Shown: positions 2,573-38,992 of the stretch, one piece after another
Layout: each line of letters opens with the position of its first letter
How positions within the stretch are numbered: position 1 is the stretch's first letter
From: Styela clava
Taxonomy: Eukaryota
Length of the DNA stretch: 64,000 nt
Direction of reading: 5' to 3'
NCBI RefSeq assembly: GCF_964204865.1
Contig: NC_135252.1
Span: 6,448,001 to 6,512,000 of the forward strand
Position numbers and translations under genes: made by a program
The notes under the pieces: generated by a model
The model's input: only the letters and a program-made list of their open reading frames with translations
What the model was told of the DNA's origin: nothing
Database searches by the model: none

Positions 2573-3054
2573 TCATGTATCCATCGATGCCTCAGCTGAG
2601 CACTGATTTTTTCTGTAAAGATTGCCAAATAAGAGTGATGGAATGCCACGTAGTGGTGCGAAATACAAAAGGCTAAATTTATGGTGGAACATCGCACCGC
2701 CAGACTCTGAATAAATCTGCAATGAATTAAAAAGCCTCCTAGCGACTTTCATATTTTTAAATTAACTGATTCCAGTAGTTGCAGATAAAAGCGTTTTTTT
2801 CACAATAAAAATACCAAATCTAACAAGAACATACAAAAGGCTAAATTTATGGTGGAACATCGCACCGCCAGACTCTGAATAAATCTGCAATGAATTAAAA
2901 AGCCTCCTAGCGACTTTCATATTTTTAAATTAACTGATTCCAGTAGTTGCAGATAAAAGCGTTTTTTTCACAATAAAAATACCAAATCTAACAAGAACAT
3001 CAACTTTGCAAAATGATCCAAAGATTTCACTTCATCTCTAATAACGTAATCCAC
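2573..3054 (-). CDS. Possible terminal exons of an unknown gene
   Basis: ttag|3054-2983 VDYVIRDEVKSLDHFAKLMFLLDL|gtattt and ttgcag|2716-2573 IYSESGGAMFHHKFSLLYFAPLRGIPSLLFGNLYRKNQCSAEASMDT*, both phase 0. No 5' exons could be joined and no homology was recognised. Confidence 0.25.
2663..2998. repeat. Perfect 168-bp tandem duplication (2 copies)
   Basis: 2663-2830 and 2831-2998 read identically (atacaaaaggctaaatttatgg...ctaacaagaac). Confidence 0.95.
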
Positions 3055-8384: not shown

Positions 8385-10786
8385 GTTTAGACCACATGGT
8401 TTTCCCTCCTATTTTTCGATTACGACGAACTCGGGACTCTTTTTTCAAAAGTGGTGGTTTCCCCAACTTTTGACTTCAGAAACTCTTCATTTAAGTTTTT
8501 ATGTTTAGTTTGAAAGTGATTTTGCAATTTGAGTTATATATATGTAAAATTATGATGTTTTTCAAAATCATAATTTTGTTTCAATTATAAAATAGTATCC
8601 ATAAAAAACACAAAAAGCTGTACAGCCTGTAGCATATTCTAGCCAATTTTTAGATTACTAAAGCTAGACCTAAACTCACTTAAAATATAATAGCGCAAGT
8701 TGTCTATTTACACCGGCATTATATAAACATAACTAAAAACTCACAAGTGAAAAACTATAGAAAGAATGAGATATATATCGATGTTTATCAGCGCGCTGTA
8801 TGAATGAAAATAAAAACCAGTATATATATTAAGGAAGGAATATCCGTTTCAAACAAAAGTAGGCTACTCTTGCCTTAACCGACTTCTTCCAGCTTTAAGT
8901 ACAAAAATGCATTCAATCGGGTTATAAGTTGCGTGGAAAATTGTTTTTTTGCAACATCAACAACAACAAACCTAAAATATTTCGGATCTTTTGTACAAAG
9001 TCCCCGCCAACGCTCAAAATAAGAAAATTATCCAGTTAGATTTGGGAACGCAAACTGCACTGGATAATTACTAATTTCATATTTTAAAATGTGGCGGTGA
9101 TGCTTTTCTCAACTCTCACATTTTTGCATTAGTGGCGGGGAACAACAACAACGATTCCATCACAAGAACGTTTCGTGCCCAAAAACTGTCTGAGCGGCTG
9201 GTTCAATTCCAATTGTTACGTCACTGTAAACCTCCAGCTGATTAGCCATTGAGACAGAGGTAAACAAGGCAGTCCATCACGTCACGTTGAAATATCCAGT
9301 AGTTTAATTGTATTGATGCTCTTAGGTCAATTTACGTTAGATAACAGCCAGAAATAATGGTAATGTAGATGTCATAGTACACAAGAGGGAATGCTTAGTG
9401 TTTGTCATCAGACAAAGAGGTTTGAAACGTAAATAACGTCGTTGCGCTAAACGCTAGTGCACCATGTTTATTTTGAAGAAGAGACTGGTTTGTAACGTTA
9501 ACACGATTTTCATAACACGTCACGAGTTTTCATGTTTTTTTTTATTAGACTGTATATATTTATAACTAGGCCAAACCATTTGTATATAAATGGAGATGCG
9601 CAAATAGGTCACGATTTTGCGAAAGGCTTCGCGTATGAATGACTTTTAGAAAAACACGCCGGTTTTGAGTAAAATTTTTTCCTACGTCAATTCTGTATCG
9701 TTGTCGTTCATTTGTGCATTTCTTACAAACTAGCTGCTACTCTGTGAGTAGACTGAACATTTTGGATCGATGTTCTTATTTAGAAAAGTTCTTTTCGAGA
9801 CTCAACCGCCGCCGCTCGCATTGTGTTACTGCAGTGGTTGTTTTCCCAGCATAGACTTCCTTGCTTATTTATGCAACATCGATCAATCAACAGAATGCCA
9901 AATATGACGTAACAATTGAATTTTTAGATGCTCTCTGACAAATTTTTAAGAATAGTTGTAAACATTAGACCAAGTAGTGTTACCGAATTTTAGATATATA
10001 TAAATAGGCTTACAATACGTCTCGGTTGAGCCAGGACAGTCCCGGTTTTTCGCCGCCCCGGAAGTAAACCTGAATGTCCCGGTTTTCTGCAGTATGACAG
10101 TCGAAAATAATTTTTCAATTCGATACTATTACAAAATTGCTTTTTTAACGGAGGCAGCCGATTTACCACTGGTTTGCGTCTCACTTCACTAGTTCAGATA
10201 GAGAGAAAAATTGTTAGGCCATAGGATGCTCCAGAAGTATGCACACCAAGATTACGCACAACCTGAATTAAATCGGTATTATGTCGTCATAAGCAATTCC
10301 TTGGGTTGGAGTAATTTCGGAACACAAATTTTGCATTATTTATTGTATATGCACAAAGCAAAAATACAACAGTACATATTTGTAAAACTATTTAGCAAAC
10401 GCCGTAATTAGGTAGTCATTAAAGTTATCGTCATAAAACTGTACCGCCATATACATTTGGACGTCAATTTTTAGAAAAAAGACGAAAAAAATCTAAAATA
10501 GCAACTGTGAAAATTGATAAATCGTGTTTTAATGCATTCGCGTACATAATATTATGGGTATAGTTTTATTATAAAAAATACGGTATATAGAATACAAACT
10601 TCTTTATAATGTTCTAATCTCAGGTGGGAGTATTTTCAAATTTCAATATTTTATAAATTCGGGCATCTAATCACTGAAATATTTATCTCTTGATATCATT
10701 TCAGCGATAACTCTCTGAATACTTAATCTCAAGCAGGAATAAATACTCATTTGCGACTATTGTTGTGGATTTTATCACAGTGAATA

Positions 10787-13254
10787 CTACCTATGTTTAT
10801 CATTTGATAAACCTTTATCATGATTTATTGCGTGTTGTTCCCAGTACGTTTTAGAAAGAGCCATAAGTCCGTTAAGTTCTTGTTGGATAGCATTTATTTT
10901 CCTTTCTAATTCTTGTTGGTGCCGAATTTTCATGCGATCGACGTCTTTGTTGTGTTCTTCAAGTTTGTCTTTTTCTTTTATAACGTGTTGGGCATCTACT
11001 TGATGAATCTTCAAAAAATATAAATATTAAACAACAGAGCAATTCTCAAATATATGGGCACGAAAGTTCAATGACCAAACGCAGTACCCGTAGCATATAT
11101 CCCCTATATGTGAGGTATATGTATATATTGAAGTCTGTTATATGAATGTTCAAAAGCTTCAAATTTAAATTGTAAATGAAGTCCTACCACCGTAACAATT
11201 CGCATCCGTAACGGTAAGCCCACAGAGTCACTCGTCTCCATCAGTACAATTTCAATAATATTTGGGTTGGATATCTTGTAAATTTTGCATGTTTTAAGCA
11301 CAAATTGTTGGCGTGGAAAAGACGCTGCTGGCACTATTCGCTGTACTCCGCATGCTGTGACTGAACCAGTGGTTCCCATACAGTGCGAAATATCGTCCGA
11401 TTTCGTCAAGAATTACTTCTTACGTTACCCGCGTTTAGTACAAGGCGCTAAACGAGAAAGCAATGTTCAAATATATGAACACCACCAACAATAACAACTA
11501 GCACTCCATCAACAGCAAAACGAATAAACGACAGCAATATAGTCGAACTATCTATCTCACACCATGCGTAGAGCAATGCTTGGATCTATGGGCACTAAGA
11601 TCAAATCACTAACCCAATGTCAGCAACATTAAAAGCGTTGCAACGATCAGTGTCGTTGTGGTGATTTATATGCGCAAATACAGTCGCTCCCGAAGTGTAT
11701 TTACCAATATGGAGGTATCTAATTTTGTTCGCCTACTTTACATCAAGTTGTGTAAACTGTAAAGGGACTGAAACCTATGGTCAGGAGATATTCACTTGGC
11801 TAACACAGACAAACCCGACTCGTAATATAACTAAAATAAGTAATCGGAATACAAGCTCACGTATCACATTGATTAAATTTGCATATATTATTAATATTTT
11901 CCTTATTGTAGTTCGATGGTAATAAATTGAAATTTTTCTTCTCAGTGCGCCGTGATTTGTATTACAAGAGGTAAATGTGTCTCGAGCTTGAAAAGTTGGG
12001 AAACCTCTTTACTAGACCATAGGAAGCTTCATCTGATAACAATACATAATTATCCCATATAATAACATTTTCTCAAGTTTAGTCGTCTCCGATCCGTATT
12101 GAGTCGAGGGATAATCGAGATTCACTGGCGTCAATGCGACCAAAATCACAATAAAATCAATTTTGATGTACTCCGGCACTATGTAGTGGTTAGACTGTTT
12201 TGCTCCTAAGGCTATCGCTCTGAATAAAACAGAGCAAAAGCTTTCATCACAAGCCTCAAAAAACAACACGAGCACAAACGTGATCGTAATTCGGCTTTGA
12301 AAAAATAACCTTAGCGAGAAACATTTTATTTTTGTTTAATGGTTTAATGAAAACATTTAAATTCTACAAACCTGAGCGTCGAACTGTTTTCGAAATTTAT
12401 CAACATCATGTGAATGTGATTCCTTCATAAGTTTTATTTCATGCCTATGTGTTGCTCCCAGCCATAATATATCTGAAATACGAAGGTTGAATATAAGATT
12501 GCTCAAGTGGTATATCGGGGTAACTGTTCATCAATATTCCAATAACAGTTGGGGCCGTATGGAATTTATTCTACTTTCACCGCCTGGCTAGTATTCATTC
12601 CACTTCACTGACATGATTATGGGTTACTGATAAAACATAACTTCGAGTTATCATCGCACGTACCTATTATATACGCCGCCGAATTAGTGCATGCGGACAT
12701 GCATTGTTATTGTGTGGCCGTGAGATATTTAACACCCGTCGAATGCAGACCAGAGTTGGCTTGGATTTGAAATATCATTCAAAATCATGAGAATGCAAAA
12801 CTATTACTTCAACACAAACGGCGTTCAGTGATACTTTACAGTCATTTCAAGGTACAAACAAGTGATGGGAATTTTAATACGTAAATTTTGAAACGCCAAA
12901 TATAGCGTTAGCATCAGCGGCGAAGTACATAATCTGTTTGCTGCGGTCGTCTTCGTCTATACATAACGTCTAAAACAAAGAACAAGAACGTGTTCGCTGA
13001 TTAACACGACATTTCCAGAACGGTTCGCTCGTGTCCCCTGCTTTCCACCGCTGTATATAAGATGCATCAAAATAATTGTCTGCTGTAAGAAGTCGATAAT
13101 CAATTAACTTACCAGCTATTAGGAGAATGCATAAAATAAAAACTGCAATGAACAGCTCAACCACAATTGGTGAATCCTTTTGAACTCGTCGGAAGCTTCT
13201 GGCGAGACGTGTGAGCGGTTTACACCATCGAAATTTCACTGGTGGATATGACAT
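10787..13254 (-). CDS. Orphan single-pass transmembrane + coiled-coil protein 1 (~189 aa)
   Basis: Exons 13254-13008, 12472-12372, 11008-10787 (phases 1, 0; 570 nt). Basic N-tail, hydrophobic IVVELFIAVFILCILLIAG, then E/K/Q/H-rich heptad-like sequence (HRHEIKLMKESHSHDVDKFRKQFDAQIHQVDAQHVIKEKDKLEEHNKDVDRMKIRHQQELERKINAIQQEL). First donor (c|gtgtta) is weak. Confidence 0.75.
11367..12008. mobile_element. Degenerate hAT-type MITE in intron
   Basis: Left end cagtggttccca; right end ...cttgaaaagttgggaaacctct; no clear TSD. Confidence 0.5.
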
Positions 13255-16200
13255 TAGAAAATTTAAATATACATGTATCTAAAAATGAAACATATAAGAC
13301 AAGGATTAAGATCCACAAATACCATTGGAAAAAGCACGTTAGGAATAAATTTGCGTCTTATCGTGGGTATGACCATCTGGTCAATCGATATGACTAATTT
13401 ACAATATCGTAATGATTAGGTCAGTGCGTTAACTGGGTAACCATTCCCTCCCTTACAGATAGATATGTGAGAAAATGACAGATTATCGATTTGAAAATGT
13501 GTTCTAAAAAAGCGACGAAATCGAAATAAAATTTGTCAACGATTGCATTACTGGTGATACTGGTTTAATCAATATCGATAATGCGTGATGATTGTGATAA
13601 CCTCAAGTACTTCCATCAAATGCGTTCTTCAAGTTAAAACTCGTCAATAGCTCATTCGCTTTAACATATGGCGGCATATGTACCAATCCAACTTGACCTA
13701 TTCATGTTTTAATTTTCCGGAGTATAAAACAGAACGTCACGAAAGCATACTTCTGTCATTCCAAATGAATCATGCTCGGTTATGCTGATGAATCAATTTG
13801 GACCTAACACTTCGGGTACTCGAACGAGCTTTCCACGCTGGTACAACTTTTAAATCAACATCAATAAATTATTGATTACATTTTGCGACGCACATGACTG
13901 AATACCAGTATATGGCTTAACAATTAGAGCTGAGCTAAACACAGACAGCGATGACTGCTTGCATGTTCCCTCGGTCGAGTAAGTAAACAGCTTTCACTAA
14001 GTAAGGCGCTGACGGATACTGCCTGTTTATTGCGAACATTATAGTAATCGAAGCTATTCAAAGAAAGTTAGTGCTACTATTTACATTGCAAGCTAGCAAC
14101 CTTTGGTAGTGCGCAACGGCAATAGCCAAGACTGTTATTTTGCCAACCCGAACACTCTCAAGGGATGTATCTGTCGTAAGACAACTGTTGAATAGGATAG
14201 CCCAAGGCATGACGAGGGTTGATATTAGCGTAAAAAATCCTGTCGCCTCGAGCGGAAAGTGTTGAGAGTGGAAAGTTGCGAAGCGTGTCGACGCAACTTA
14301 TAAGTCCACAAGAACTGCATGAACCTAATTTCAATCAAAAGCAGCCGCGTAGTGGGCAGTGCATATTTTCAGTGTAGCTGGTTTGCTCGTATAAAGTCTG
14401 ACGGTATGAAAAACTTTCCACACTGTCGATTCCATGACTGTGGTTTAAAAATGTAGATCACTAATCCTAGCTCTACCATGATGCTTATAGATCAGTTTGT
14501 TTGTTTTGTTGGGGTCGCAGAAAAACTGACGAGCAAAAAAAAAACCGAATTGCCGAATGATCTTGATATCATTTGTTAGAAATTGTGTTAGGAGAACGAG
14601 ACACGTAAATTCATACAAGTCTAACTTAGACCAGCCAGCTCTAAATAACTTTATGAAAGTGGCAATTATCCGCCTATCTGTAGGCTATATGTTAGTTTAG
14701 TCTGGGCGTTTTCCGCAATTCGCTTCGTTATTATACGCACAGGGCAGTGGACACAGTTTAGTGGCTCATAAATTTTGAGAAAACTAAAGTATTCACTGAT
14801 ATTTATTTAACAATACGCGACAATGTTAACCTCTTCGAAACCTCTAAAACCGATAAATCGAAGAAGATTATTGCTGAAAACACATTTTATCTTTGGCACA
14901 TAGTTGATGCGAATGTCTTTAGCAATACTAATCGTATATGGCGGTCCTTATTTATAATATTCGAACCCGGATATAAGACGGAGAGAGTTCCAAATTAATC
15001 TTAGCTTGTTATTGTAGTGGTAACCGTATAATTCTATAGGTTTCGGTCGCACAATACAAGTCTGCGTGTTTTATCAGTATCAATGATGTGAGATATGTTT
15101 TGGGGTACATAGAGCACAGTCGGTGTCAGCAAAAAGATTTTGAGTTTCTATACAGAAAGAGCGTAATGTGTTGATGACTTACATAGGACTACGTAGAATA
15201 AAAAATTATCAGCGCATAATATCTGATGCTAGATCTAAATAATTTAGCGAAAGTTCAAACAAGTTCCGGGACTATTTATACAGCGACATAGGCGCGAATA
15301 GGGTCGTCCCTTTATCCTTCATCGATTTCTTTCTATTTGTCTATATGGTACGATTCAAGAAATAGTCTTTTCCCGTAGAGCGTCTCGTATTTTTTCTACT
15401 GTTGACAGGTCAAGGTAAAGAAAAACGGCATGATCTATTTAATTCCATATAGCTACTGTCCTTCTGTTTACTCCGGAAAAACAAAAATGGGTTTTCATAT
15501 CTTAGTAATATCAGCTTTTCTTGGAAGCTTGTTTACCAGTTCCAGTTCGAGAGTTCTGCATAGTTTCATATATCGATATACTTACTTACTACCCATGTGA
15601 AACTAATATAAATATCAACCCATGATACAATATTGGTAATCATATCACGCACGATTCGTCACTTCCGTTACCTCTGCGTCAAATAAACTTAGCTTTTCAG
15701 CGCATATGGTTCTTGTGCCGCTCGCTTATCAAGATAAATTTGTGATGTTTTCTTGGGAAAATACCATATGCTGTAGATAGTGTGGAGAATGCCGAAATAT
15801 GGTCTTAAAAATGGATTACATAATGATTAATTACTATTAGCATGCGTGACTAGTGTGTGTGTACCGAAGGCAGGAATAGGCAATGCAGGCAAATCTAGGT
15901 TGTCCCCCCCCCCCCCCTTCAGTGCAATGCAACGAAGAATTTTTAGGACTCATTCAATGTCTTTTCCCCTCAATTCTCAAAATTAAGATGCTGATGTGAA
16001 TTACACTGAAATGCCGTTATTGGTCTTGCGCAATGAACCATTCGATGTTGTAGATTACTGTGATTGGGTATAGTATCTTCGTATGTGTCATAGCCAAAAT
16101 CGTGAGTGATTATTTTTCACTTTATTAAATATCCATCTATCTTGTGCAATACTTGGATATTGAGTTAAATTTTCCAAATGTTAGGCTATAATGGAGATAT

Positions 16201-16651
16201 AGAGGGATCAAGAATGGATTTCATAGCAGTGAATTCAATCGCTTGTCGACATTTAATTTCGAATTGTTCCGCTTGAACTCAATGTATACCCCGGGGTTTC
16301 GTCAAGCACGAATGAACGATTCAATGATTTGACCGTTATCTCTTTTACCTCTCATATTTCAGTGTCCACATCGTGGTACAGGTATTTGATAAATGAGTTT
16401 ATATAGTTTTGGATCTTTTAACTGAATAAGCCAACAACGAGCGACAACAAAGACTAAATGAGTCAGCACTAGGCATTACAAAGTTCAGAATAACGGGATC
16501 TTACTACCTAATACGCCTACACAAAATATCGGGCATGGGCTGATCTCTGGATTGTCTTAGATTAGTGACCATCTCAGGTAATGCTGGAACTTTTTGATTT
16601 TCTTTCTGCATTTTCCTTTATTGACAGCTGCAATTTTGCTTCTCAGATAAA

Positions 16652-19600
16652 ATGAACAGTGACAGAACGATTGTCCAGCTTTTTAAGACGGCATTTGTTA
16701 TATGCACGATTCTAACATTTGGAGTGATTTTGAACAGTAAGTTGTTTTCCTAACAGTCGTCAGTACTATGAAATTGGAAAGTTGTGGATGCGTTTTCGGT
16801 ATAGGACGCCAATTATACAATAATTGGAAACCATAATTTATTCTCCTTTTACATGTAATAACTGTTAGCTTTTGTGTATAAGTCTCTCCACATAAAATGA
16901 TTTTTGGTGAATTGATCAGTTTTTCTAAGTTATCAGCTTGTGTTATTTAGAAATCACTCTGTTTATATGTTGCATCGCAACTGCTAATGACATTTGCATG
17001 GTTTCTTTATGACAATTCAGATTCCAAGTATCGTAAAATATCAAAACAACGCAAGCCAAGAATGTATAAAAACGTCCGATCGACACTCAAGTTGATACAA
17101 TGAATAGCTGTAAATGCGCTCAAATTTCTATCAATGTTAATTCATTCCATCAATGTGTACAGATTCTACACTCATTGTATGACCAACCGTTCTTTATAAT
17201 ATTAATAAAGTTTATATAACATCCCAATTGTTATCTACGCCCTGTACATGAAGACGGTCGCTCGGGAGCATATACATTCCTATACTACTAACTATAAATC
17301 AATTATACACCATTTACTTTACAAAACAACGTTGTTTTGTTTCGTCTCTGGCTTTTACGTTTAAGTCCCTGAAAGCCTTGAATACATTAAGATCGCGCAC
17401 ACAGCAAACGGCTTTTAATAGGGTTAGGGGCTGGATAAACTTCAGTAGGGTAAAGCATGGGTAGAAAAATTGTGATGCCCTCCTCTTATTTTAATTCAGG
17501 TGTTGCAAAGAAAAAAGATAAAATAATTGCAGAACGAGATCATCAGACATTAGTAAGAATATCACTAGTGAGGGAAGAATATGAAAGGAAGATGGCGGAC
17601 ATGAAAATGATTTACGAACAGAAAGTACAACAGGTAATTTATGACCCAGTTTTATATTCACGATTAGGGATGTTCAAATAATTTTATTTAGTAAGTATTT
17701 CAATTTGCTTCAAGTAATTTATAGAGATTTGTTGCGGTGTAAATGATGTTTTCAATATGAAATTAGAAATGTTCATAGAAAGAAAATACGAAAGTTTACG
17801 TTTTTCCCCATTGTGTATGGGGTCTCAAAATGAGGCATAAACGAAAAAAATAACATAAATTTACATCATCCTATTCAGGTAATGAATTTGATGAAAAAAT
17901 CGGCAACGGAAGAACTGGAAAAACAAAAAAACGAATTAGAAGAAAAATTTGCGAAGGAATTGAAAAATCAGTCAGGTGGGAAAAACTGAGATAATAAGTC
18001 GAAAAATGCGTTCTTTTAAATAGGTTAGATATTTTTTTGTTGTGAAATATAGACGTTCTCGTTTTATGAGTTGATAAACTTCTGATCAAAAGATTAAGTA
18101 TTAAATTAAAAAAAATTGCCAGAAATTCATAGTGAGAGAAAGTAATGACTTTTTAAAATCATGATTTCGATTTGTCGAATTACAATTTCGAGAGGCGTCT
18201 ACCGTTTGCCAAAAACGAGAAATGGGCCTCTTCACTCCGTGTGATATGATGACATTACACTTGTTGGCTGACTTAAAAATGAACCATTATTGATATCCTA
18301 TTTGAGAAAATGGTTTAAATAAGCTGGAACACGTTTTTTCTAAACTTTACCTACCTACATAAACAAATTTAGTTAGACAATAGTTTTAAAGTTTTCAAAC
18401 TCAGCTGTATGGAGATTCTCGTACGGACTTCTTATCCCGATGCCATGCAAAATGGTTTTTATATAAATTTTATTAAACAAAGAAGGCGACGTTGTGAAAT
18501 CCGGACCAACTTTGAAAGATGACTTTTGTATTGGTCCATAAGGTATAAGGGGCTTTACATTACAATAATAATATCTATTCCTGTGACAAAGACTATTTTC
18601 TGAAAATGGACTGTTGTTTTTGTTAAGAGTTTTCGAACAATTTCTAAAATTTTAGGCAATAAGAGAATCTAATGTGCCATACAATGTACAAGTACAATGC
18701 GAATTATAACTTAGTAAAACCTAGAGATATTTTTTTATTACTTATAAATACAAATCAGTTGTAAATACATAATTTTCACGCATTCTAGAAATAACTATTT
18801 GATGCCGTTTTAATTCATATTTAGAGGAAATTGAAAATATCAGATTACAGTTGAAACGAATTGCTGATCAAGTGAGTAAATACTGACTTGTATAGTATAT
18901 TTTATCTGATAATAACTCACATGAAAGTATATATGATTTATTAAACAAAATCCAAGGCTAGTAAAATAATTTTTTTCTTGATTAGCACACAATCTTCAAT
19001 ACAGCGATGCCCTAAAACGGGCCTAAAGATAATTACTTGGGGTTAGGTTCTAGACTAGAAACCCTTTGTTAGTTGACTTAATCTTAGAATATTGCACTGA
19101 ATCGACAAATTGGTTAGATTGTGTCGAATTAGAAAGATTGCTATATATACTTCTAAATTCGTTAGCTGCCTACTATGTGCCGTAAAGTATGTTGATAAAT
19201 CCCTGTGTGATGTATGTTGTCACTAGGGCTGGGGATGGTTAACCGGTTAACCGATTTTAGATGGTTAACGGTTACGATTTATTATAACCGTTAACTGACA
19301 TCTCAGGTACAAATCATTTTTATAATGTACAATTCTTTCAAAAATGATTACGTCATCGCAAATTTATCTCCTGTGGCGTTTAATTCAAAAGAATATCGCT
19401 AACTCTATTTGCGAGGACCTAATAAATGTGCTAAATACCTAAAAAAGTATCAAGATTGCTGATTATAAAAATTTGACAATAATTAATTATGAATCAGTTT
19501 TCGGTCGAAATATATTGTTCACGATTTTATTTCAAAATTGTACCGTATATTGTATATTCAATGCCAACCAATAAGTGCGTAGTTGATGCTGTTTTTCTTT

Positions 19601-20385
19601 ATATATCTCAAAGTAGAATTTGCACATCAAACACTGAAAATTTGTCACATAAATGACATTTCATAACGGAATCAGGTTTTACTAAAATACTTGCATATGT
19701 CCTATCCACGCTACATATATATTGCAACAGAGCGATCACGAAACTATCTCGATTCGTGAATAATTTTGAGCAATACCGGGATAAGGTCACGCGAAATTGC
19801 TGTGTAACCATTGTGGCGTAACAAGCTAAAATTATAAATTATTATGTGAAACGTCACGCTGCGGTTAACCGGTTAATTTTACCCGGTTAACGTTTAAAGT
19901 GTTTTCCCTGAAATTCCCAGCCCTAGTTGTCACATAATGTATGGGCAGTCACATTAATATAACGTGTCTAAAATACTAGATGTTTAACCTGTGACTCATC
20001 ACTGTGTCTCAAACAAGATCTAATGAAACTTTAAAACAAAAAATAGATGTAGAATCTGGAAGCTTGGACTTTTAATATAAACACTCCCTACTAGTGGATA
20101 TTTTAAATCCATTACCTCAAAATCTTCGAACGTTTTCAATTCCTTTAATTTCATTGCCAGGAACTAAATCAAGAACTGAATCAACAACAAAATCAAGAAG
20201 AAAAGAGTTTATCAAGTTTGGAGAAAATCCAGCAACTTCTTTCAAAGATAAAATCTCAAATATTGCATCGAGAGAAGGAATTAAAAACCGATAAAAATGA
20301 AAAGTATTCTTACGTTGAAGATAAAGAATTACCTAAACAGATCACTAATCAGTTAGACAGAAGAAAAATAGACAGTGAAAAGTAA
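16652..20385 (+). CDS. Orphan single-pass transmembrane + coiled-coil protein 2 (~195 aa, possibly N-terminally extended by micro-exons)
   Basis: Exons 16652-16736, 17500-17633, 17879-17975, 18825-18871, 20161-20385 (phases 1, 0, 1, 0; 588 nt, all GT-AG). MNSDRTIVQLFKTAFVICTILTFGVILNSVAKKKDK...EEYERKMADMKMIYEQKVQQVMNLMKKSATEELEKQKNELEEKFAKELKNQSEEIENIRLQLKRIADQELNQ...IDSEK*. Confidence 0.85.
19224..19925. mobile_element. hAT-type MITE, family TAGGGCTGGG (copy 2, opposite orientation), intronic
   Basis: TIRs tagggctggg ... cccagcccta; perfect 8-bp TSD gttgtcac (19216-19223, 19926-19933); GGTTAACCGGTTAACC subterminal motifs. Confidence 0.9.
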
Positions 20386-22547: not shown

Positions 22548-25500
22548 TCAATTTTCTTGAACGCTGATGCTGTAATTATGAAAGTCGAAGCTTGCCACGT
22601 AATGGAAGAAGATATTGGATATCACAACAATATATTCGAGTAATGCGAACAATGTGTACACTGTAAATTAATAAAAAATAATAATGATCAGCAATCTAAG
22701 AAATTTGAGCACCAATGCTAAAAACATAATATACAATAAATCAAAGTTATAGTTATTTTATTTACATTTTATATATATACGTTTGGGAATATGAAACCTC
22801 CATATTTCATCTACTGGTGTGGAGATTTCCAGGCTTGTCCATGGGACATATTTTCCTGTCCCATTCCCATCCCATCGCAATTATGCCTGCCCCATCCCAT
22901 CTCATGGGCTTCCCATTAAAATAAAATTCATTAAAAATTGTTAAATTTAGGTTTAGCGTACGAAGAGACATGCAAAACAACAAAATTTACGGAGCTATGC
23001 TCAGATATATGGACACAAAGTCCCTAACAAATTTTTTCACCATTATTTCCTCGAAAATCATACGGTTTCTGTGTCGCATGGGAAATATGCTGTCCCATCC
23101 CACCTCACGGGACGTATCTCATGGAAATTCTATTCCCATGAACAAGCTCGGAGATTTCATGACAGTCATGACTTCAGAGAGTAGAGCTGTGTGATCGGGA
23201 AAAATTTATAACCGATCTCGGGTTGGAGAGAATTTGACTCTGACTCTCGACTAAGAGTTTTAACAACTCTGGCGTGGAACCCATGAGAAAATCAAATTTT
23301 GATAAGAAGTTTGGCATATTTAATGCTTCTATAGACTGCTAGAAAGTTCAATCTGTCTTTTTTCCCCTGGCACCACAGCCCTCGCGAGTCGACTGTTCTA
23401 GAAAGTTTTATTGTCTTGGCGACCTTGTTTTACTTGAGGAAATTTGATTGAAAACGATGTAAACATGTTAGGTTATATTCATAATGTGTATGACATACCT
23501 TGATCTTCACAGTATGTATTGTGCCGATAGTAAAAATACATCGAAGAAGATAGCGAAAGAAGGTAGATGATACATAATATTCTTTTCCATTTTTTAGACT
23601 CCTTTCTATCTCCTGTGCCACATATACTACTTCCACAACAATATATAACGGACGAAGCAATGTAGGTTATAAAGCCAATTTTGTGCCATACTGAAACATA
23701 GTTATCACAACTCTCAGTAATGACGAAAAATTGAATAAGTTAAAGGTATGACAAATAGTGCAAATGAACCAGAGGTAAGTTGTTATCAGATAAGGTTCAA
23801 ATGTACAAATATTTGCTGTGGTTGCCTACTTTTGATGTGCAAAATTTCATTGTTCAGTTACGCTTGCTTACCAAAAGTAATTAAATATGACAAACTAGAT
23901 AGTATAGTAACTTACTATTAAATTTATAGTATATACATAGTTCTGACGCGCTGAAACAGAGAACGAAACGGATGCTGTACAAAAAAGTCTAATGGGACAA
24001 AACATATGTATGTTCTGGCTATTCTACATCAAATATATATATCAAAATAAACTTTGCTTGGCAATTTTCTTTTTCGGAAATTAGGCAACCAAGTAGTTTA
24101 TTCAGGTAGTGATAACTTGCCGCTTACATTTTGGGTAAGTCTATTACCTTTTAGTTAAATCTCTCAATATTTCCAAAGACGAATATTTATAGATAAAAAT
24201 AAACGGTGCATAAATTTATTTCTGTTTAGCTGTAACGTTGCCTATAATATTCATTTCACCATGCTTATGCAAGATTTAGAGTTTGGGCCATGAATATCAC
24301 AAGTGTGATGGATGTTAGAGGGTTGTCTATTTGCATCAAAAAACTCAAAAATCAGAATGTATATAAACATTTATTTATTTAAAAAATATATATATACTAA
24401 CATTTATACTCGGTTGATGACATCATTGTGAGAATGAGTAAACTAAAAACTTCAATTGTATTCAAACTCAAATTGAAGAAGGCTTTTATACTTTGACATC
24501 TCTGTACAAACACAAGGTTTTTCCTTTACATTTTGTTGTGTAGTTATACAAAAATCTAGCTATATTTTCAACAACAATTGGTTAAGATGCTTTGAACAGA
24601 ATGACACGAGAGGTGTTATCATCGGAGAATAAAAATCAAATTTCTGCGAATCATTGACAGTATATAGTGGACAGTATAGTGTAAAAACAGTTTTTTTGTA
24701 ATTCAAAACTCAAGAATTAAATTAACGTTAATTACTAAATTCATGTTACGACATCTCTTTTTTATTTCGAAACATGTGTATATTATTTGATCACAAAACT
24801 GTTTTTCATTAAGCTATGAGTATAAACTTACCGATGTACCCAATTTTCTAGCTTTCATTTCGTGTATCACTGCAATAAGAAGTCTTGGTGCTGAATGAAG
24901 AGCGATACATATTTTCCAGACTACAGATGAAGGTGGCTGGTCAATTGCTGCGCTGATCGATGGTAAATAATTTATCACCTGTTATGGTAGGACATGACTT
25001 TTATTAATACAATAGAGCAATGCTCAAATATATAGACACGAATTCCAAAACCAAGTAGTACGGGTAATATATCTTCGAGTACTGGTATCGTAGTCTTCCC
25101 GACTTCGAGTGGAGTGACCACTAGATCTCAACGACATTTCGTGTCCGATTCGTGATGTAAATTTCTCACCCCACACAGTATATCGTTTACACGTTTGCTG
25201 CAGCAGTTTACTTACATACAAGTAGTCTTGTAATGCAATACAATGCCACAAGTAACGATTAGGACTTATGATGGTTTACGCTCAACCATACAAAATTGCG
25301 ATACTTTGATATATATTTATATTTAGGTGACCGTACATTTAAACTCACGTACATTTGAACCCATGTGTATATCCGCGGGTTCAACCTATATGCGGGTGGT
25401 AAAACCCATGGGTTAGGTAGGGTTTAAATATCCGCAAAACAAAATAAAAATTCATAGGTGCAATATATGCAGGTGCAATTGTCGTGTGTTCAAATGTACG

Positions 25501-26038
25501 TGGGTTCAAATGTACGGGGACCTTTTATTTATAATATATATATATATATATATATTATTACTTATTCACCAGTATTAAATGTTGGGACCTGCGCTAGTGT
25601 TTGCCTAACAGCATTATCTAAAATTTCATTCACAACAGTAGCCATGACCAATCGAGCTGGAAAAACACTCTGCGGGTACACTGCTTGCCAATTCAGCAAA
25701 ATTCCACTCAAATTTACGTTCCAGTATATATATATAATAATAAACCGATTTTACTTATAGTTTGAAACGACCGGATGATTTCTGATGCAGTATAGCCTAC
25801 CCAAATTATGTGTTGGGATTGCCAATTCGATTTGAGCATCTCGAAACTCTATGCTGTCACGTCCACTTACCCCACAATGTGTAGCCGTTGTCCTGTTGAA
25901 ATCAAAACATAGTGACCAAAGTATGGAGAATATCAATCCAATCAAAGGTAGAAGAACAGTGTTAAATGCTAATTTTGGCACAGGTATTTCGACGAGAGGG
26001 TCCATTTGCCCTTTGTTCAAACTAATCAAGTAGTCCAT
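22548..26038 (-). CDS. PGAP2: Post-GPI attachment to proteins factor 2 (FRAG1/DRAM/Sfk1 family), ~239 aa
   Basis: Exons 26038-25871, 24978-24832, 24501-24402, 23690-23499, 22660-22548 (720 nt, phases consistent). Hallmarks: [83 protein letters not shown]. Confidence 0.95.
22830..23150. mobile_element. MITE family CAGGCTTGTCCATGGG (copy 1), in PGAP2 intron
   Basis: TIRs caggcttgtccatg ... catgaacaagctcg; 8-bp TSD gagatttc (22822-22829, 23151-23158); CCCAT/GTCCC subterminal repeats; homologous to 50229-50689. Confidence 0.85.
25326..25522. mobile_element. Palindromic MITE in PGAP2 intron 1
   Basis: ggtgaccgtacatttaaactcacgtacatttgaacc ... gttcaaatgtacgtgggttcaaatgtacggggacc inverted arms; central ggttaggtagggtt. 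Confidence 0.7.
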
Positions 26039-30150: not shown

Positions 30151-30415
30151 TAAAATGATCATGTAGCTAGCTATAATTTTTTTTGCAAACCCATGCGCGT
30201 TGTGTCATACTAGTTGATAATTTTATTGGCTGGCGCAATAACCAAAAAATAAAACGTCACAGATGCAAACCTCTAGATTTCAACCGATTAAGTTTTCACC
30301 AATTGAGTTACCAATTTACCTGTTGTCAAACTGTCAACTGATGGCAACACACCACTAACAATTAGCATTGTTAGATTTTCAGTTCCTAATAATTAAGAGA
30401 CTATTACTAGATAAA

Positions 30416-31530
30416 ATGAAAATCTCAGTTATTATCTTATTAGTCGTCTGTGTGACATCATCGCATGCCTTTACGTTAGATTTCCTCAGAGCTCGTCTTT
30501 CTTCTATGGTGAACTCAGCAAAAAAATGTTACGTCGGAGAAGATGAAAAATACAAGAGCACTAAATGCAAGATCGACGGAGTGAGTACATTATTATTGAA
30601 AATTGCCTTAAAACATTTTCCGGACATTTCGATATCAAACTTCAGGTACTTGAAGAAACAAAAGGCCCCAGAACTTACTTTTACTTTGTCCCATCAGACC
30701 CATATTTAACCCAAAACTTTGCTATTTTTTTATAATTTAGGAGAGGACCTTTTTTTTGGAAATTCTTCCAGGTGTCCGAATATTCAAGTATTGCCATCAT
30801 GTCCAATTATATGCTTAAAACCGGAATCGATCAAAGACTATAATTGGATTGATGTGTTACTCAATAAACTTGTCTGCGACCTCAATGCGATTAAAAATGC
30901 GAACAGAATCTCGAGCTAATCATTGAAAAGCAACCCAAGCTGTAAACTCAACTTTATTAATAATTGCTGTAAGATTTATTAGTTAGAAATTAACACAAAT
31001 GCACCAAACTATTTTTTCAGTCAGCTGCATGCGTAACGAAACTACTTTTTTCCGCCGATCAAGACCAGTCAGCAATAGTCACAAAATCTTGTATGGAAAA
31101 AAACGAATGCATGCAACTTTCGGATAAAAACAAGGAATTGTGTCCTAATGATGAGTCTGCAGAAGGAGTAAGTTGAGCAATAAAACGCAAAATTAAAACT
31201 TTATGAAACCATAAGTGGTTTATGGCTGCAAGTGGGCTAGCTTCGTGGAGGCTGAACATGGCCTAGTCCTAGTGTAAGCCTAAGCCCGATCTTATTATTG
31301 ATTTTCAGCCCTACGACAGCGAAACTGGTGATTGCTAACGAGTTTTGCAATTTTTCGCTTTTCTAAGAAATGAATACAGTGCGAAACAGTATGCTTAACT
31401 GTAGATGTTTAGTATATTCTTACTCTAACATACGACATCATTTTTACAGGAAAGAGTGTGCTACTACTGCTGTTTTACCGATGATTGTAATCAAGAAATA
31501 AAAATCAAAATTGTTTCCAAAGACGATTAG
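30416..31530 (+). CDS. Secreted three-finger (Ly6/uPAR) protein A, 130 aa
   Basis: Exons 30416-30580, 31021-31167, 31450-31530 (phases 0, 0). Signal MKISVIILLVVCVTSSHA; CYVGEDEKYKSTKCKIDGSAACVTK...KSCMEKNECMQLSDKNKELCPNDESAEGERVCYYCCFTDDCNQEIKIKIVSKDD*. CCxxxxCN LU-domain end; no hydrophobic GPI tail. Confidence 0.9.
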
Positions 31531-33772
31531 AACACTTTATGATATATTTTTGTTGACAACATTTGTTTATATTACATTCACACTTGTTAGGGGCATTTCT
31601 TTATGTACAACGGCGCGTGGAAGCGCTAATGAGTTTTATAGTTTTTTTTAGCTTAGAATTCTGCATATATTAATAAAAAAAAATGTCACTATGAACTGCA
31701 AACAAAAATGGGAAATTTTAAGATGTTTGCACAATAATTGATTACCTTGAATATCTTATATGATGAATTCTGATTGTGTATTTTCTATGATTAGTGATCA
31801 AGTAAGTTGTAGATGTACCGATCAACTGTGTTTTATATATTAATAAATATATATATAAAAAAAGAATTCTGCATGTTTCGTCATTGCCTAATTTAACTGT
31901 TTCTAAATGTGATGAAGCACTACAAGTTTTTTTCTCATGTTTTTGCATGTTTATTGTGTACTTTTATCAATCAATCATAAATGCAAAAAAGCAATTACAA
32001 TATTAAATGTCCGAAAAGAATATTTGTCTCATGCTTCTCAGTTTTGAAAACAGAGTGAATAGTAATCAATCGGCAGTCACCATTATGTCTAGCATAACTA
32101 ACCAGCGGGTGGGGTCCCAGAGTCGGATCGCGGTTACGCGTGTGGTATCGTAGCAGGGGTTTTATCTACAAGATTATAAACAACATTTTGCCGATAATAC
32201 AGCCTCGACACCGGTTGTTCAATAGATTTATACAATATCTATAACAAGAAAGTGGCACGTTTGTATATAACTAGTGCTGCCCCATTCACAATAAAAACGA
32301 GTTCTGAAGCAACGCACGTCATAGTAACCAACTCTAAATTACTGATTTTTTTCGAATTAGGGGAAACAATTTTAATGACTGACTTATATTGCTAGTATCT
32401 AATTATGCAATAAATACCTTATCTGTACACTGGATGTGGCGTTTGCACAAAGATCACAATATGTAGGATAGATTGGAAGGTAGAGCGACTTGGCGACAGC
32501 CGCTTTCTTGTGAATTATGAAGGAGGCAATCGCAACCAAAAAAAGATGTACACTTGCAGTAGTATTCGGTTGTTTACTGTCACAACATCGCCATGCACGT
32601 ACTTAAATTACACATGCTTAAATCAAATTTATACAACCTAATTAACATTTTCAAATATTCATGTAAACCATTTACATCGCCGTAGTTTTCAGAGACAGTT
32701 CGTTTCCGATCGGCAGTTGATGCTGCACTAGGTGAGGTTCATCTATTTCATAATAGGCGACAGACTACTTAATTCTCAAATAGCAAGTTAACTACTTTTA
32801 AAACAAAGAGTAGCAATATGAGACAAACTTACGGATGCATCGTTCAGATAGTAATTATTCATGTCAAATCAACTAAAACTCAGATGATTTCATTGTCGGT
32901 TGGTGTAGTTACAGGATGCAGTGTTTCTTGTTGTGCTGCATGGTGTTCTATTGCATATATGTACTGCATTGCACTATTTTTTTAATGATAAATAAAGCAT
33001 AAATAGTCTACGTAAATTATATCAAGAGCAGAGGTACGGATGCTACTCTTGCAGAGGTACGGGTGCTGCCGGTTTCGATTAAACGTATACACTTTGTATA
33101 AATGTCACGCGCTACCGGAATTAAAATCGCTTGTTGAAAAAGCGCTACAACGAGATTGGTATATAGAAATTTCAGATACAGTGAGATTAGTTGAAACAAC
33201 ATTGCTTGTCCATTTTTTTTTTTTATAAATTCTTTGTGGATATGGTGAGGTGAACGCAAACCAAGCTTTTTGTCCAGGAAAAGAGCCATCGAAATATGCA
33301 AGAACCTTAAGAAAAAGCAGCATTATATTGCTCATAGCACCGACAAAAATCCATTCTCGACATCATTTGTCCAAGTTGAATTTGATTCCTAATGCCAGAC
33401 TAAAACCTGATTTGCAACTTAGGGAGATAACTTATCATGATTATAATTCAGTAATGCCCTCGACTGCCCTTTGCTTCCTTGTAATAAACAGTAGAGTATT
33501 TCTTATAACAAATTCTTTGTTTTAGGGGTTATTTCGAAGTAACTAGATCGTGATTTCAATTCGACAGCACGAAGTAGAAACAAATAATTCAAATACGGCA
33601 ATTATTCCCCCATGTGACCTATCGATTCCAAACATCGATTGATATTGTACCAATTGTGTTACCGATTTACTCGCTATCGAATCGTAAGTGAATTATAATG
33701 ACAGCGCACCAGTAACAATTAGTAATATTGTATTTCCAGTTTTCAATAATTAAAAGAATATTGCTGGATGAA

Positions 33773-35096
33773 ATGAAAATCTTCGTTATTATTTTAGTCG
33801 TCTGCGTGACATCATCTCAGGCCTTCACGTTATATTTCCTCAGAACGCGTCTCTCATCTATGGTGAACTCATCAAAAAAATGTTACGTCGGAAAAAATGA
33901 CAAATATATGAGTGATTCATGCGAAATTGACGGAGTGAGTATATTGTTATTTGAAATTGCTTTGATACAATTTTTATTTTTTATCTAACACATCACATAT
34001 ATCACATTAACATCACATCTAACACACACAGCGTTTTGCCAAATTCTTGTCGTTATTTGTTAAAAAAATGCTAATAGACTGTTCGATTTCAAACCTTTAA
34101 TATTTAAACATGGATTGGGTCCCTTGAACGCAAATAGTTTTCTTTTTTTATGGTACACGACATTTTATCCAAACTTTACTTTATTTTTAAATTGAAGAGG
34201 CATACTTTTCAATCCGTATTGCTCGGTAGTCTAAGTTCTTACCGTACCGGCACGTATGGACAAACGTCGTGTCCGTGTAATTCAAGTATTGCTCGCATGT
34301 CCAATTATATGTTTATAACCGCTGGCAATAATAGGCTGGGTGAACTATTCAAAAAAAAACTAATTTTGCCATCTATGAGAATAAAACTACGAAAGATAGA
34401 AACTCGAATGGAATGTACCTATTTTTAATAATGGCTATGAAATTTATTAGTTAAAAATGAACCAAACTTTTTTGCAGTTAGCTGCATGCGTAACGAAGCT
34501 ACTTTTGCCCGTTGATCAAGACCAATCAGCAATAGTCACAAAATCGTGTATGGAGAAAAACGAGTGCATGGAACTCTCGAATAAAAACAATGAATTGTGT
34601 CTTAATGATGAATCCGCAGAAGGAGTGAGTTTATAATAAATAAAACGCAAAATTTAAGGGTGTTAAGCAATGAGTGGTTGACAGTTGTTAGTGGGATAGC
34701 CCAATGCGGGCTGAACATGGCGAGGCCTGAATCCAACTCTGATTATTGATTCTGAGGCAAAATACAGCACGAATTGATGATTGTCAACTTTTTATTATCT
34801 GCCATAGTCTTCATTCTGAGTTTGGTTAATAATAATAAAACATAGTACGGGAAAATAGGCTCAAGTGTAAGCGTGTGGTCTATTTACTACTGTATCATAG
34901 AATGTTATTCATCAGTGATATCACAAATTTCGAAAAGTTTAGTTTTCTAATGTCTTTTTTTTTCGAGTGTTATAATTCTATCATAAACTATGTATCATAC
35001 TTTTTACAGGAAAGTGTGTGTTACTACTGCTGTTATACCGATGATTGTAATCAAGAGATACAAATCAATATTATTCCCAAAAGTACTAGCGATTGA
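33773..35096 (+). CDS. Secreted three-finger (Ly6/uPAR) protein B, 131 aa; recent tandem duplicate of A
   Basis: Exons 33773-33934, 34478-34624, 35010-35096. CYVGKNDKYMSDSCEIDGLAACVTK...KSCMEKNECMELSNKNNELCLNDESAEGESVCYYCCYTDDCNQEIQINIIPKSTSD*. Flanking non-coding DNA is also homologous to A (29780-29960 vs 32800-33015; 31930-32100 vs 35400-35510). Confidence 0.9.
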
Positions 35097-36045
35097 AGAT
35101 TCAAAATATATTTTTGTATATTTCATGCTAACACAATTTGTTTAAATGAAAATTTCATACCCCATGACATATCATCTTGCATTATCGTATATTCCCACGT
35201 TTTCAACAATGCTTAGTCATTTATTCGTTACTGCATTTTCCAGTTTTTATTTTTATTTAGTTACGAATTCATCTACTTTTGTTGTTCGCTTGTTGGAAAC
35301 ATTATTGTAACAAATGAAAATTGTGTCTCGTTTCACTTTATAATACTGTTGCTAAATGGGAGGAATCATTTTTATTTGTACTACGAAAATCAAAAAATCT
35401 TTCCTATGTTTTATATGTCTATTGCGTACTTTAATCAACCAATGATAAATAGTAAGAAGCAATTATACTATTAAATGTAATGCTTTTGCTAGCATATGTC
35501 TAGCATAACGTACTAATAGATAGGGATTACAGTATTTTGTGGAGTTACAGTCTGGACAGTACAGTTGAGAAGCAACATACCGTACAATTAACAATACAAT
35601 ACTGTTTACGAAACAACGGCAAATATTTTTCTAAGCAAAATTCATCCTAGCAATTATCCTTGTGTTTTTTCATCATCTGAAAGTCACAATACAACTAACG
35701 ATATATATACTTGATAAAATCTGATCAATCGCTATGCAAGATATAAAAATTGGTTTCATGTTGCATTAACATTGAACAACGTTGATGTCAAATCTTAAAG
35801 CTCAATTGAGCGTCTGAATTCAATCTGCCAGACTTTAAACACTGAACGAGTGAGAACCTTTAGATTTTAGATCGAAAATATATTTCTCTGTCAACTTCCT
35901 ATTTGCGGTTTAAAATAATGGAATCAACAAGCAATTTTATTTTATTTTGATGTTTTATTACACTCCAACATACAATGCTCGCTTTTTTATTTGATTTTTT
36001 TCTGCTGGAAAAAAATCTGAAGTGAAGTATCTTGCGAGTTGCAAC

Positions 36046-36260
36046 CTAGGCTAACCCTCTCTCTATTCTCTCAATGACATAGTTGTCGTTGTTGCAACCA
36101 TCTGTGAAACAGCAATAGTTGCAGACTGTTCCCTAAAAAATAATATATTTATAATTTCATAAGAATGCACACGCTTCATTATATTAATGTTACATTAGAC
36201 ACAAAACTGCTTTCGAACTGTTGGTAAGCAAAACGCCGTTACAGCAAAGTTTAAAATTAC

Positions 36261-36292
<32 letters not shown>

Positions 36293-37236
36293 GCTTATCA
36301 GCAGGCATAGCATATATGACGCTGACACATTCTAAAAATGGTAGATTAAAAAGAAGCAAAAGTTTATATTCATTTTGTTGCATTTTTGTTTTATTTTTTT
36401 CAACATTGCACTAATTTCCTAATAATTTTTGTTTGGCATCAGTGCTGACATAACGAAATGATCATATAATGTGATTTGCTCAACAATTACACCCGGGTTT
36501 GAATAAATATTATCTGAAATTCTGCTGTTACACCCAAATCTTACATCGATTGCAGTTTCTCCTGCAGTTTTGCACGCTTCCACATTTTGGCTGCCCAATT
36601 CTAGGCATTCTGATACCGGCATGCACTGACTTTCAACCTCAGCATTTTCGTGTAGGCCCGTATATCCGTTCGTAAATGTAATCTTGGTGTGGCACGCCAT
36701 CTAAAAATATATGACAAATATTCGGTATTTTTATATGTTTAGACTAGAACATCAACGTCAGCTACAATTTATACAAACTGATCAAAATTTTCAATGAATG
36801 TTGTTATTTCTGATTTTCCAAATAATTAATCATTTTTAATGATAATAAGTCGAAATTTAAAATTGGATTTAGAAAAAAAAATTTGTTAAAATATTTTTGA
36901 AAAATCTGATGCCTATCTAATTTCAAATATGAACATGGACATAATAATGAACAATATAACTGCCATAAATTATGACCTAATTCCAATTTACTAAAAATCA
37001 GAAAAGTTAATAAAATAAGATTTATTAGAACGAGCATGTATGGGCAAGACACATACAATAATTCTGTGACCTTGAAATGAAGGAAGTTAACTCACAATCT
37101 GACGCGTGGAACATTGAAATCGAAATGATTTCTCAGAGAAGCGCAAGTAACATTTAGGTGATGTCGTTATTGCCGGCCATTCAGCAGCCAACGTCAATGA
37201 TACGAAGGTGTATAGAAAAATCGCTGCAATTTTCAT
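36046..37236 (-). CDS. Secreted three-finger (Ly6/uPAR) protein C, 127 aa
   Basis: Exons 37236-37096, 36700-36545, 36132-36046. MKIAAIFLYTFVSLTLAAEWPAITTSPKCYLRFSEKSFRFQCSTRQIMACHTK...SQCMPVSECLELGSQNVEACKTAGETAIDGTVCNYCCFTDGCNNDNYVIERIERGLA*. Confidence 0.9.
36265..36290. repeat. (TA)n microsatellite
   Basis: Uninterrupted TA dinucleotide run; a second one lies near 25535-25554. Confidence 0.9.
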
Positions 37237-38992
37237 ATTTATGCCTTGTAACTTCAAATAAATCGACTATGCTAATGATATCACCTTTAATAAAATATAA
37301 ATAATATATAAATTGGTAATGTCATCGTATATATGCAAGAAATATGTCATAAACTTCAAGATAATATAATCGAATCTCGAACTTGAAAACATCGGTCCCA
37401 AACAATGATAAAATACCTGGCGAACAAATCAGCATCCACAATACGAGTCAAACATTAAGAAAATGCTCCATTTTTTTTATAGAATTCTGTCATAGTTTTG
37501 TTTCACGACTTTTTGTTTGCGGTACCTTATATTATACTACAATTGCTTGAACTAACTGCCGTTGACGTATACACATTATTATACCATTAAGAAAGCAGAA
37601 AAACCAAGTGAGTTTGATTATGTTAAATTTTTGAAGTAATTCAGCAATAATGGGCGCCAAATTCAAGACCGTTTTTTCAAATAGGAAAGTTATGTTTCTA
37701 GGAAAATCTACTCGCTTATACCAGCCTAGAGTCCAAGAAAGTACGCTGGAAGAACAATTTCCGCACATGAGTTTTATTCATTTTTTCTGACGGAAAGGTA
37801 AACCAAACCGATATTATTACTCGTTATTTTAGTCCGATAAGGTTTTAAAATGCCAATGCTTTTCACTAACTCTTAGCTTCGCACCATATCAACAGGTCCC
37901 ACTACAAATTCAATAATCTTTATGAAAAGGGTCAACTATCATATTTCGTACTTGACGTCTCCCTTGGGTGTAGTGGAACTAATGAAATCTTGTGTACAGA
38001 ACGTGCAAATTTATTGAATCCAGTATTGAAATGTTTCCGCTGCAGACAGCGTCATGCATTACTTAAATGCATAAATATAAATCATCCTGACTGCATCCCA
38101 CAGGAAACTACATTTTTTGATCGAAGTAAGCACCGTCGAAATCAGTAGGCTATATCATATTTCGGAGTTTTTATTATAAATCATGAAAACCAATTTTGAA
38201 ATTTGTTATTAGCAATTTGTTATATTGTCTTGCGTGGGTTTATTTTAAATAGCAATGTAACGTAAAGCTCAATATATAAATCAAACTACGCGACCAAACT
38301 AAATTCAACTACGAGAATGACACCTCGATAGCGTGTCAACGTACAGATTCAAATTAATTTATTTCCTGTTGCTCTGGCTTTTAAAGCCTTTTTAGCTCAA
38401 GCGGAAATCGTATAAACAAGCTATTGAATTTATTTCATTGAATTCGGCTTTTTGATATTTCCGTCCCAGTCTGAATCTCTAAGGCAAAGTTGTATCCATT
38501 TGAATCCTTCTCAAGTTTCCCCCGTATAGGAAATGACTAAATATTTCTGCGAACAACTCTCCGGGAATTTAGCAGCAATTGAGTTCACAGCAAGTACGAC
38601 TTTGTATAGAGTGCATCACTTTTACCTTAGAAGCAGGTTTAAATTATTAAAATTAAAATATAAAAGATGTGCTATTCATGATATTTTTGGGCTTGCTTTT
38701 ACACACTATTTAAAACATATTTTAAGGGGAAGCAAGTTAGGACTAACTAGAAAAACCAGGAATCCAAATTAATTCGTCCATTGATTTATTTTGTATGCGC
38801 TATTTTCTTAAATTTTCAAATTTAAACTGCGCTGTAGTCACTTTTCCGCCTGCTTACTGAAACCTTGTATGACTAAAATAAATTTCATCACCATATCTAA
38901 TGTATTTCAAAGATAGTTTGTCACAAGATACAGAATTAGTCTAACACACATTCATAGAGAACTCGTCCCAATCGTGCCTTTTATTCCCAAGA

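Follow-up and report, generated by a model that had tools for sequence, protein, structure and literature searches.

The window, a stretch of 64,000 nucleotides of the Styela clava genome (RefSeq assembly GCF_964204865.1, contig NC_135252.1, positions 6,448,001 to 6,512,000 of the forward strand), contains two small, divergently transcribed genes, here called gene A and gene B. Their start codons at 13254 (minus strand) and 16652 (plus strand) are ~3.4 kb apart, as an earlier sequence-only reading of this DNA had stated; the observed transcript 5' ends at 13280 and 16361 leave about 3.1 kb between them. The locus has the following features:

10267..10786, minus strand: gene A 3' UTR; its extent is the reach of the RNA-type contigs, which continue from exon 3 with no further joint among those listed
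10787..11008, minus strand: gene A exon 3, coding part; His100, His111, Trp137, His140, His144 and the stop codon
12372..12472, minus strand: gene A exon 2, 101 nt, phases 1 and 0; Asp48, His56, His67 and the first hendecads
13113..13280, minus strand: gene A exon 1; short 5' UTR, ATG at 13254, basic N-tail FRRVQKDSP, TM helix at residues 29-47, phase-1 donor
13281..16360, no strand: divergent intergenic stretch of about 3.1 kb; nothing else in the 124 kb compared matches it
16361..16577, plus strand: gene B non-coding first exon, without an upstream in-frame start
16647..16736, plus strand: gene B exon 2; opens the coding sequence (ATG at 16652) with a short N-tail and a hydrophobic helix, which is either a signal anchor or a signal peptide that is cleaved off; phase-1 donor
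17500..17633, plus strand: gene B coding exon, 134 nt; the coil begins here; part best conserved relative to P0004
17879..17975, plus strand: gene B coding exon, 97 nt; coil
18825..18871, plus strand: gene B coding exon, 47 nt; one NCBI isoform lacks one residue at the junction
20161..20385, plus strand: gene B last coding exon; end of the main helix, second helix 138-167, low-confidence tail and stop codon
20386..21628, plus strand: gene B 3' UTR; its extent is the reach of the RNA-type contigs

Gene A is composed of the coding exons 13254-13113, 12472-12372 and 11008-10787 on the minus strand, which encode 154 aa; its introns follow residue 47 (phase 1) and residue 81 (phase 0). Gene B encodes 195 aa in the plus-strand coding exons 16652-16736, 17500-17633, 17879-17975, 18825-18871 and 20161-20385. 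Both are real, spliced genes. The two introns of gene A (exon joints 12472-13113 and 11008-12372) and all five introns of gene B, one of them in the 5' UTR, were joined in each of three runs from three studies; the RNA nature of these runs is presumed from a guessed label, none of them being on record as RNA. The spliced joints of both genes were absent from the listed rows of the one genomic-looking run. Contig depths of gene A and gene B in the three runs were 241 vs. 221-255, 10 vs. 12.6 and 20.5 vs. 16.9, with a ~20-fold spread between runs, but such depths cannot give RNA levels. Both promoters would sit in the intergenic stretch.

The protein of gene A is identical to NCBI LOC120343161 (P0005; Styela clava, 154 aa, 'uncharacterized') and that of gene B to LOC120342853 (P0003; Styela clava, 195 aa, 'uncharacterized'). 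Thus the length first proposed for gene B agrees with the gene model and the NCBI record, and the 189 aa proposed for gene A have to be corrected to 154 aa, the length given by the gene model, the RNA contigs and the NCBI record alike. A 189-aa form was rejected: none of 11 candidates provided a 35-codon internal exon, and the RNA contigs join the three exons directly. The boundaries of exon 2 are identical in a paralog of gene A and in L025, a family gene in another genome. One RNA-type contig of gene A carries 22 non-aligning letters beyond an AG acceptor at 13280-13279. These extra letters fit a spliced leader or an upstream exon; the use of spliced leaders by ascidians is described in passages of PMC3074122.

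Gene B is a single locus in the genome. Among 396 candidates a single relative was detected (P0004, 61% identical), and 595 stretches of metagenome contigs yielded none; the range of gene B given here is a lower bound. The predicted fold consists of a helix at residues 3-130 and the second helix at 138-167, with a coil period of 3.70-3.72 and two histidines in the whole protein. The charge difference across the hydrophobic helix was 0 and -1, and a basic cluster follows the helix; hence the protein may be type II, inverted or cleaved. The last intron contains a high-copy element with inverted ends (19223-19925), of which related copies lie at 1677-1918 and 55481-55747.

Several other features were seen in the window. 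A multi-exon membrane-protein gene at 22987-26038 (minus strand), which we take to resemble PGAP2/Frag1, lies tail-to-tail with gene B; its first exon alone gave no Pfam match. At 30269-31262 and 33617-34721 (plus strand) there are tandem copies, with 76-79% DNA identity, of a small gene that encodes a signal peptide and has Cys-rich exons; a further gene of similar appearance is found on the opposite strand at 36422-37266 (minus strand). The exons tried from these small genes (30269-37266) had no Pfam match; presumably they resemble Ly6/three-finger proteins. An open frame of 441 aa at 57999-59324 (minus strand) resembles, as we assume, a pogo-type transposase. A SUEL lectin exon is located at 53435-53725 (minus strand, E 3.5e-8) and an exon of a sodium:dicarboxylate symporter family gene at 62587-62922 (minus strand, E 8e-10). 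At 2663-3000 a unit of about 168 bases is repeated exactly in tandem, with 170 bases at 100% identity; the repeat is either real or an assembly artefact.

Gene A had been regarded as an orphan, but it has a paralog as well as relatives in Phallusia and Oikopleura. The paralog, LOC120342652 (136 aa; G000:C3:17054843-17056582, minus strand; L002, L005), lies 10.6 Mb away on the same contig. Its three-exon plan is the same, with intron phases 1 and 0, and its middle exon likewise measures 101 nt. The histidines and the Trp are kept, Asp48 is replaced by Gly and the basic motif is lost. When 1.84 billion representatives were searched with a profile built from three close sequences, 20 proteins came out at E<=0.001. 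One of these, P0021, was rejected as a repetitive false hit. The named members are the Styela paralog and proteins from Oikopleura dioica and Phallusia mammillata, so that the family spans two ascidian orders (Stolidobranchia and Phlebobranchia) and Appendicularia; its restriction to tunicates rests on these three named genera and the one search with a three-sequence profile. The Phallusia mammillata record is labelled LOC100178552. This record (P0034) has an N-terminus without the basic motif and a weak TM score of 1.74; its first exon is probably mis-modelled.

The family alignment comprises 22 rows, namely 15 of the 20 matches plus seven cluster mates or close relatives (P0015, P0021, P0023, P0024 and P0026 were left out). 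The search began from gene A and thus favours its motifs. However, a profile built from 11 distant non-Styela rows scored gene A with 90 bits and the paralog with 64 bits, so that the family does not owe its existence to the choice of starting sequence. Further paralogs of gene A were not found at a useful E with a distant query. A tree of 18 family rows resolved the ascidian-like rows poorly and gave the paralog a long branch. L023-L025 represent one locus of the one other genome examined. Broken frames downstream of the family gene there (L023 11103-13689, minus strand) look to us like retroelement gag/pol.

No Pfam family scored above its curated cut-off for gene A, gene B or the listed family members; none was matched by more than three of the 22 members, with a best E of 4e-4. 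Weak look-alikes of the family are FAM184 (E 0.01) and CEP152 (score 0.75). Among solved structures, the best weak matches of the family profile were apolipoprotein A-I (17.4 bits) and ATP synthase subunit b (14.7 bits), at E 0.02-0.3. Foldseek on the PDB returned no match for gene A and one for gene B (E 9.4), and the best feature scores in the ESM Atlas, 0.86 (P0034) and 0.76 (P0006), stayed below the bar of 0.9. An assignment of gene A to a known family, which would have spoken against the earlier reading, was thus not obtained from Pfam or solved structures. None of the papers searched names the genes or their relatives by accession or LOC number, and topic searches listed nothing on the family. 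A histidine-cored tunicate family of fixed length therefore appears to be undescribed, although its architecture as such is of a known kind.

Members of the family share a basic motif ahead of a single hydrophobic helix, Asp48 at the helix end and a coil of fixed length with an 11-residue repeat. Invariant in all rows with a residue at the position are His56 (16/16), His100 (20/20) and His140 (19/19); nearly so are His144 (17/19), Trp137 (16/19) and Asp48 (15/17). These counts include near-copies. For the hendecad register, six near-copy or truncated rows were dropped. In the remaining 16 rows, His occupies 61 of the 118 cells at position a, hydrophobic residues account for 81% of position e and 75% of position h, and of the 105 histidines 75 sit at a or h. 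The best coil period was 3.64-3.68 in all four members tested. The three invariant histidines are unchanged down to 22-28% identity while nearby core positions vary between Leu, Ile, Val and Met, and additional histidines (140, 144) cluster at the membrane-distal end. Of the 13 full-length rows, 12 have a span of 124 residues from Phe21 to His144, and the paralog has one of 121; the family proteins are 136-252 aa long, with a short tail at most.

In gene A itself histidine makes up 7% of the residues, and the coil is about 95 residues long. AlphaFold2 predicts one helix from 29 to 153 (mean pLDDT 83), which by arithmetic (95 residues x 0.15 nm) would give a rod of ~14 nm beyond the membrane. 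The charge difference of -1.5 to -3.5 favours an N-in, coil-out orientation for all six family proteins considered; this assignment comes from the positive-inside rule and not from a topology predictor. Sequons after the TM helix are present in only four of the 15 TM-bearing rows and not in gene A, so the lumenal location has no independent support from them.

The sequence-only reading also held that gene A and gene B are ancient duplicates. Some of what it described is correct: a TM-like stretch occurs once in each protein, together with a long predicted helix, and in both genes the TM exon is followed by a phase-1 intron. Such an intron is common in type II membrane genes. The three motif matches that had been aligned by eye exist (6/16, 5/27 and 4/8 identical residues) but need offsets of -24, -11 and -4, which imply indels of 13 and 7 residues, whereas family A allows none. 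Under these offsets the phases of the introns agree, but their positions are 5 and 3 residues off. The overall alignment score of 75 differs little from the 68 reached against the reversed sequence. In six of 16 pairs the similarity exceeded period-preserving shuffles (p<=0.05), and hhalign gave 51% with a deep alignment (E 1.5e-4, a single comparison) but 2.4% with a shallow one. In contrast, block shuffles resulted in p 0.04-0.40, the alignment register differed from tool to tool, and at the DNA level the two genes have no similarity.

The profile comparison was clearer. Gene B reached -1.5 to 5.0 bits on the family A profile, no better than reversed controls (-1.3 to 13.0 bits) and below apolipoprotein A-I and ATP synthase b on a profile of the same alignment. 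On the profile of distant rows only, it scored 2.0 and 7.7 bits, as compared with the 90 and 64 bits of the true members. The basic motif, Asp48, His56, His100, His140 and Trp137 are all missing from gene B, and His occurs at position a in 0 of 16 cases. B-like sequence was found neither in 40 kb around the paralog nor over 6.8 kb upstream of L025; a diverged or more distant B could escape this search. The 11-residue coil period is common to both proteins, and what they share is largely generic TM and coiled-coil similarity. Since B scores low on the family profile and lacks the family marks, and since the introns are misaligned, an ancient duplication is unproven; as judged from the sequences, common ancestry of the two genes is possible but doubtful. 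Gene B is best read as a gene of its own next to gene A, likewise with TM and coil but evolving faster and without the histidine layers.

Among known proteins, GPP130 has a His-rich stem, and GOLM1 and CASC4 are built like GPP130/GOLIM4. None of the 20 family matches was a GPP130-type protein. As described in parts of PMC3727924, GPP130 is a single-TM, Mn-sensitive protein whose lumenal coiled-coil stem carries Golgi targeting. It thus resembles A, as predicted, in its short cytoplasmic tail, single TM and lumenal coiled-coil stem, but differs in having a 210-residue stem and a 451-residue acidic domain, as compared with ~95 coil residues and a short tail in A. A second analogy is offered by the mussel protein mefp-12, which passages of PMC13022425 present as a His-rich helix, stored in secretory vesicles, with a predicted Zn-cored trimer and a peptide that assembles in a Zn- and pH-dependent way. 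A likewise is a long His-rich helix, and in both cases the coiled-coil core is the predicted place of the His-metal sites. However, mefp-12 is secreted, has Zn-finger-like end domains and about 18% His in its helix, whereas A is membrane-anchored with 7% His; the likeness is one of analogy only. By analogy, A would work like mefp-12 and the GPP130 stem and would be a member of neither family.

The stalks formed by ATP synthase subunit b are oriented opposite to the orientation predicted for A. These stalks and the apolipoprotein 11-mers were the best weak profile matches, reflecting the 11-residue periodicity, but the matches are not significant and both proteins lack His layers.

How could a rod of this kind work? 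Our interpretation starts from the gene structure, the family, the periodicity and the histidines at core positions a and h, all of which are observed for A. By the positive-inside rule, the coil would be lumenal and the N-tail cytoplasmic. The hydrophobic stripe formed by a, e and h is one-sided and needs a partner, which argues for an oligomer. If the chains ran parallel in a bundle, the invariant histidines would stack into rings spaced by 44 and 40 residues, and those at 67, 89, 111 and 144 would add further ones. Imidazoles buried in such a coil core would repel each other when protonated in the acidic lumen of the Golgi or of granules, and near pH 8 the same imidazoles could bind Zn or similar metals. 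Buried imidazoles titrate between the pH of the secretory lumen and that of seawater and bind transition metals, and on this ground A may be read as a likely pH- or metal-switched rod. We tentatively favour, at somewhat less than even confidence, a model in which A represents a tunicate family of type II rods whose lumenal coils form parallel homo-oligomers and whose histidine layers would respond to pH or metal and thereby switch the rod, within the secretory pathway or on the cell surface.

Alternatively, the role of the histidines may be no more than structural, since ordinary 11-residue coils often pair His at a with Glu at d and the look-alikes of the family include FAM184 and CEP152. A would then be a plain structural stalk or accessory subunit, a fixed spacer docking via Asp48 and the TM helix. 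The constancy of its length, the conservation of Asp48 and of the basic motif, the commonplace His-Glu pairing at a and d and the fact that the best weak structural matches are simple stalks and amphipathic 11-mers are all consistent with this. Yet a spacer does not explain why three histidines stay invariant where the adjacent core varies, nor why the extra histidines are clustered membrane-distally, and we regard it as the main rival, somewhat less likely than the switch. Less probable still is a heteromeric TM-coil tether formed by A and B as old inverted duplicates under a shared promoter. The genes are indeed adjacent, divergent and spliced in the same three RNA-type runs; their proteins combine one TM with a coil of period about 3.7, an 11-residue period being a requirement for a heteromer, and position d is acidic in A and more basic in B. 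Some shuffle tests and the deep hhalign comparison point the same way. These arguments are outweighed by the failure of B on the family profile, where unrelated solved proteins score higher, by its lack of the invariant residues, by the block shuffles, the misplaced introns, the tool-dependent registers and the absence of DNA similarity. Moreover, the orientation of B is ambiguous and the 5' ends are about 3.1 kb apart. Since relatives of A occur without a detectable B alongside, gene B is not needed for A.

A topology like that of tetherin had also been proposed. According to parts of PMC10617486, a tetherin consists by definition of tail, TM, coil and GPI anchor and owes its action to its topology; virus restriction with no GPI anchor added is described there for some reptile TMCC(aT) proteins. 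The same passages describe a cluster of adjoining tail-TM-coil genes, tetherin (BST2), TMCC(aT)/CCDC194 and PLVAP, whose kinship is argued from structure and position and not from sequence (PMC10617486). A and B show the tail-TM-coil build, with a type II orientation favoured for A by the charge rule and ambiguous for B; they differ from that cluster in having neither a GPI-type tail nor a Pfam match, in the His-cored 11-residue coil of A and in their neighbours, as neither CILP2 nor PLVAP was recognised among the open reading frames of the window. The earlier statement that a C-terminal GPI signal is missing from both proteins was borne out, as neither has a hydrophobic C-terminal tail: the highest 12-residue hydropathy in the last 30 residues was 0.30 in A, -1.07 in B and at most 0.80 in 25 sequences. 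No second membrane anchor was present in any of these 25 sequences, by which membership among the tetherins fails; as already noted in that reading, A and B are not true tetherins. An alternative last exon encoding a GPI signal was not found among the listed RNA-contig joints, and the contigs pass from the last coding exon into the UTR. Given the GPI-free reptile proteins and an action that depends on topology, one or both of A and B could still restrict enveloped viruses with their short tail, TM and coil. We consider this highly improbable, as neither protein has a Cys after the TM or a Pfam family above cut-off, and as family A keeps invariant residues and a fixed length, unlike a sequence-independent tether.

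To return to the switched rod, a bolder version of it would make family A a tunicate invention common to sea squirts and larvaceans, in which a membrane-anchored histidine ladder of fixed length senses the jump from the acidic secretory lumen to seawater, binds metal and so triggers the assembly of the machinery for tunic or house secretion; gene B would be a diverged, histidine-free duplicate that co-assembles with A and tunes the switch. We offer this as a speculation with little probability. The pair of A and B also illustrates how easily neighbouring TM-plus-coil genes seem related by eye. The constant length and the invariant, predictedly buried histidines, maintained from ascidians to Oikopleura despite the fast-changing genes of these animals, point to a basic, as yet unnamed function in tunicates. 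If the switch is real, family A would show that histidine-cored 11-residue coils exist in nature in membrane-bound form.
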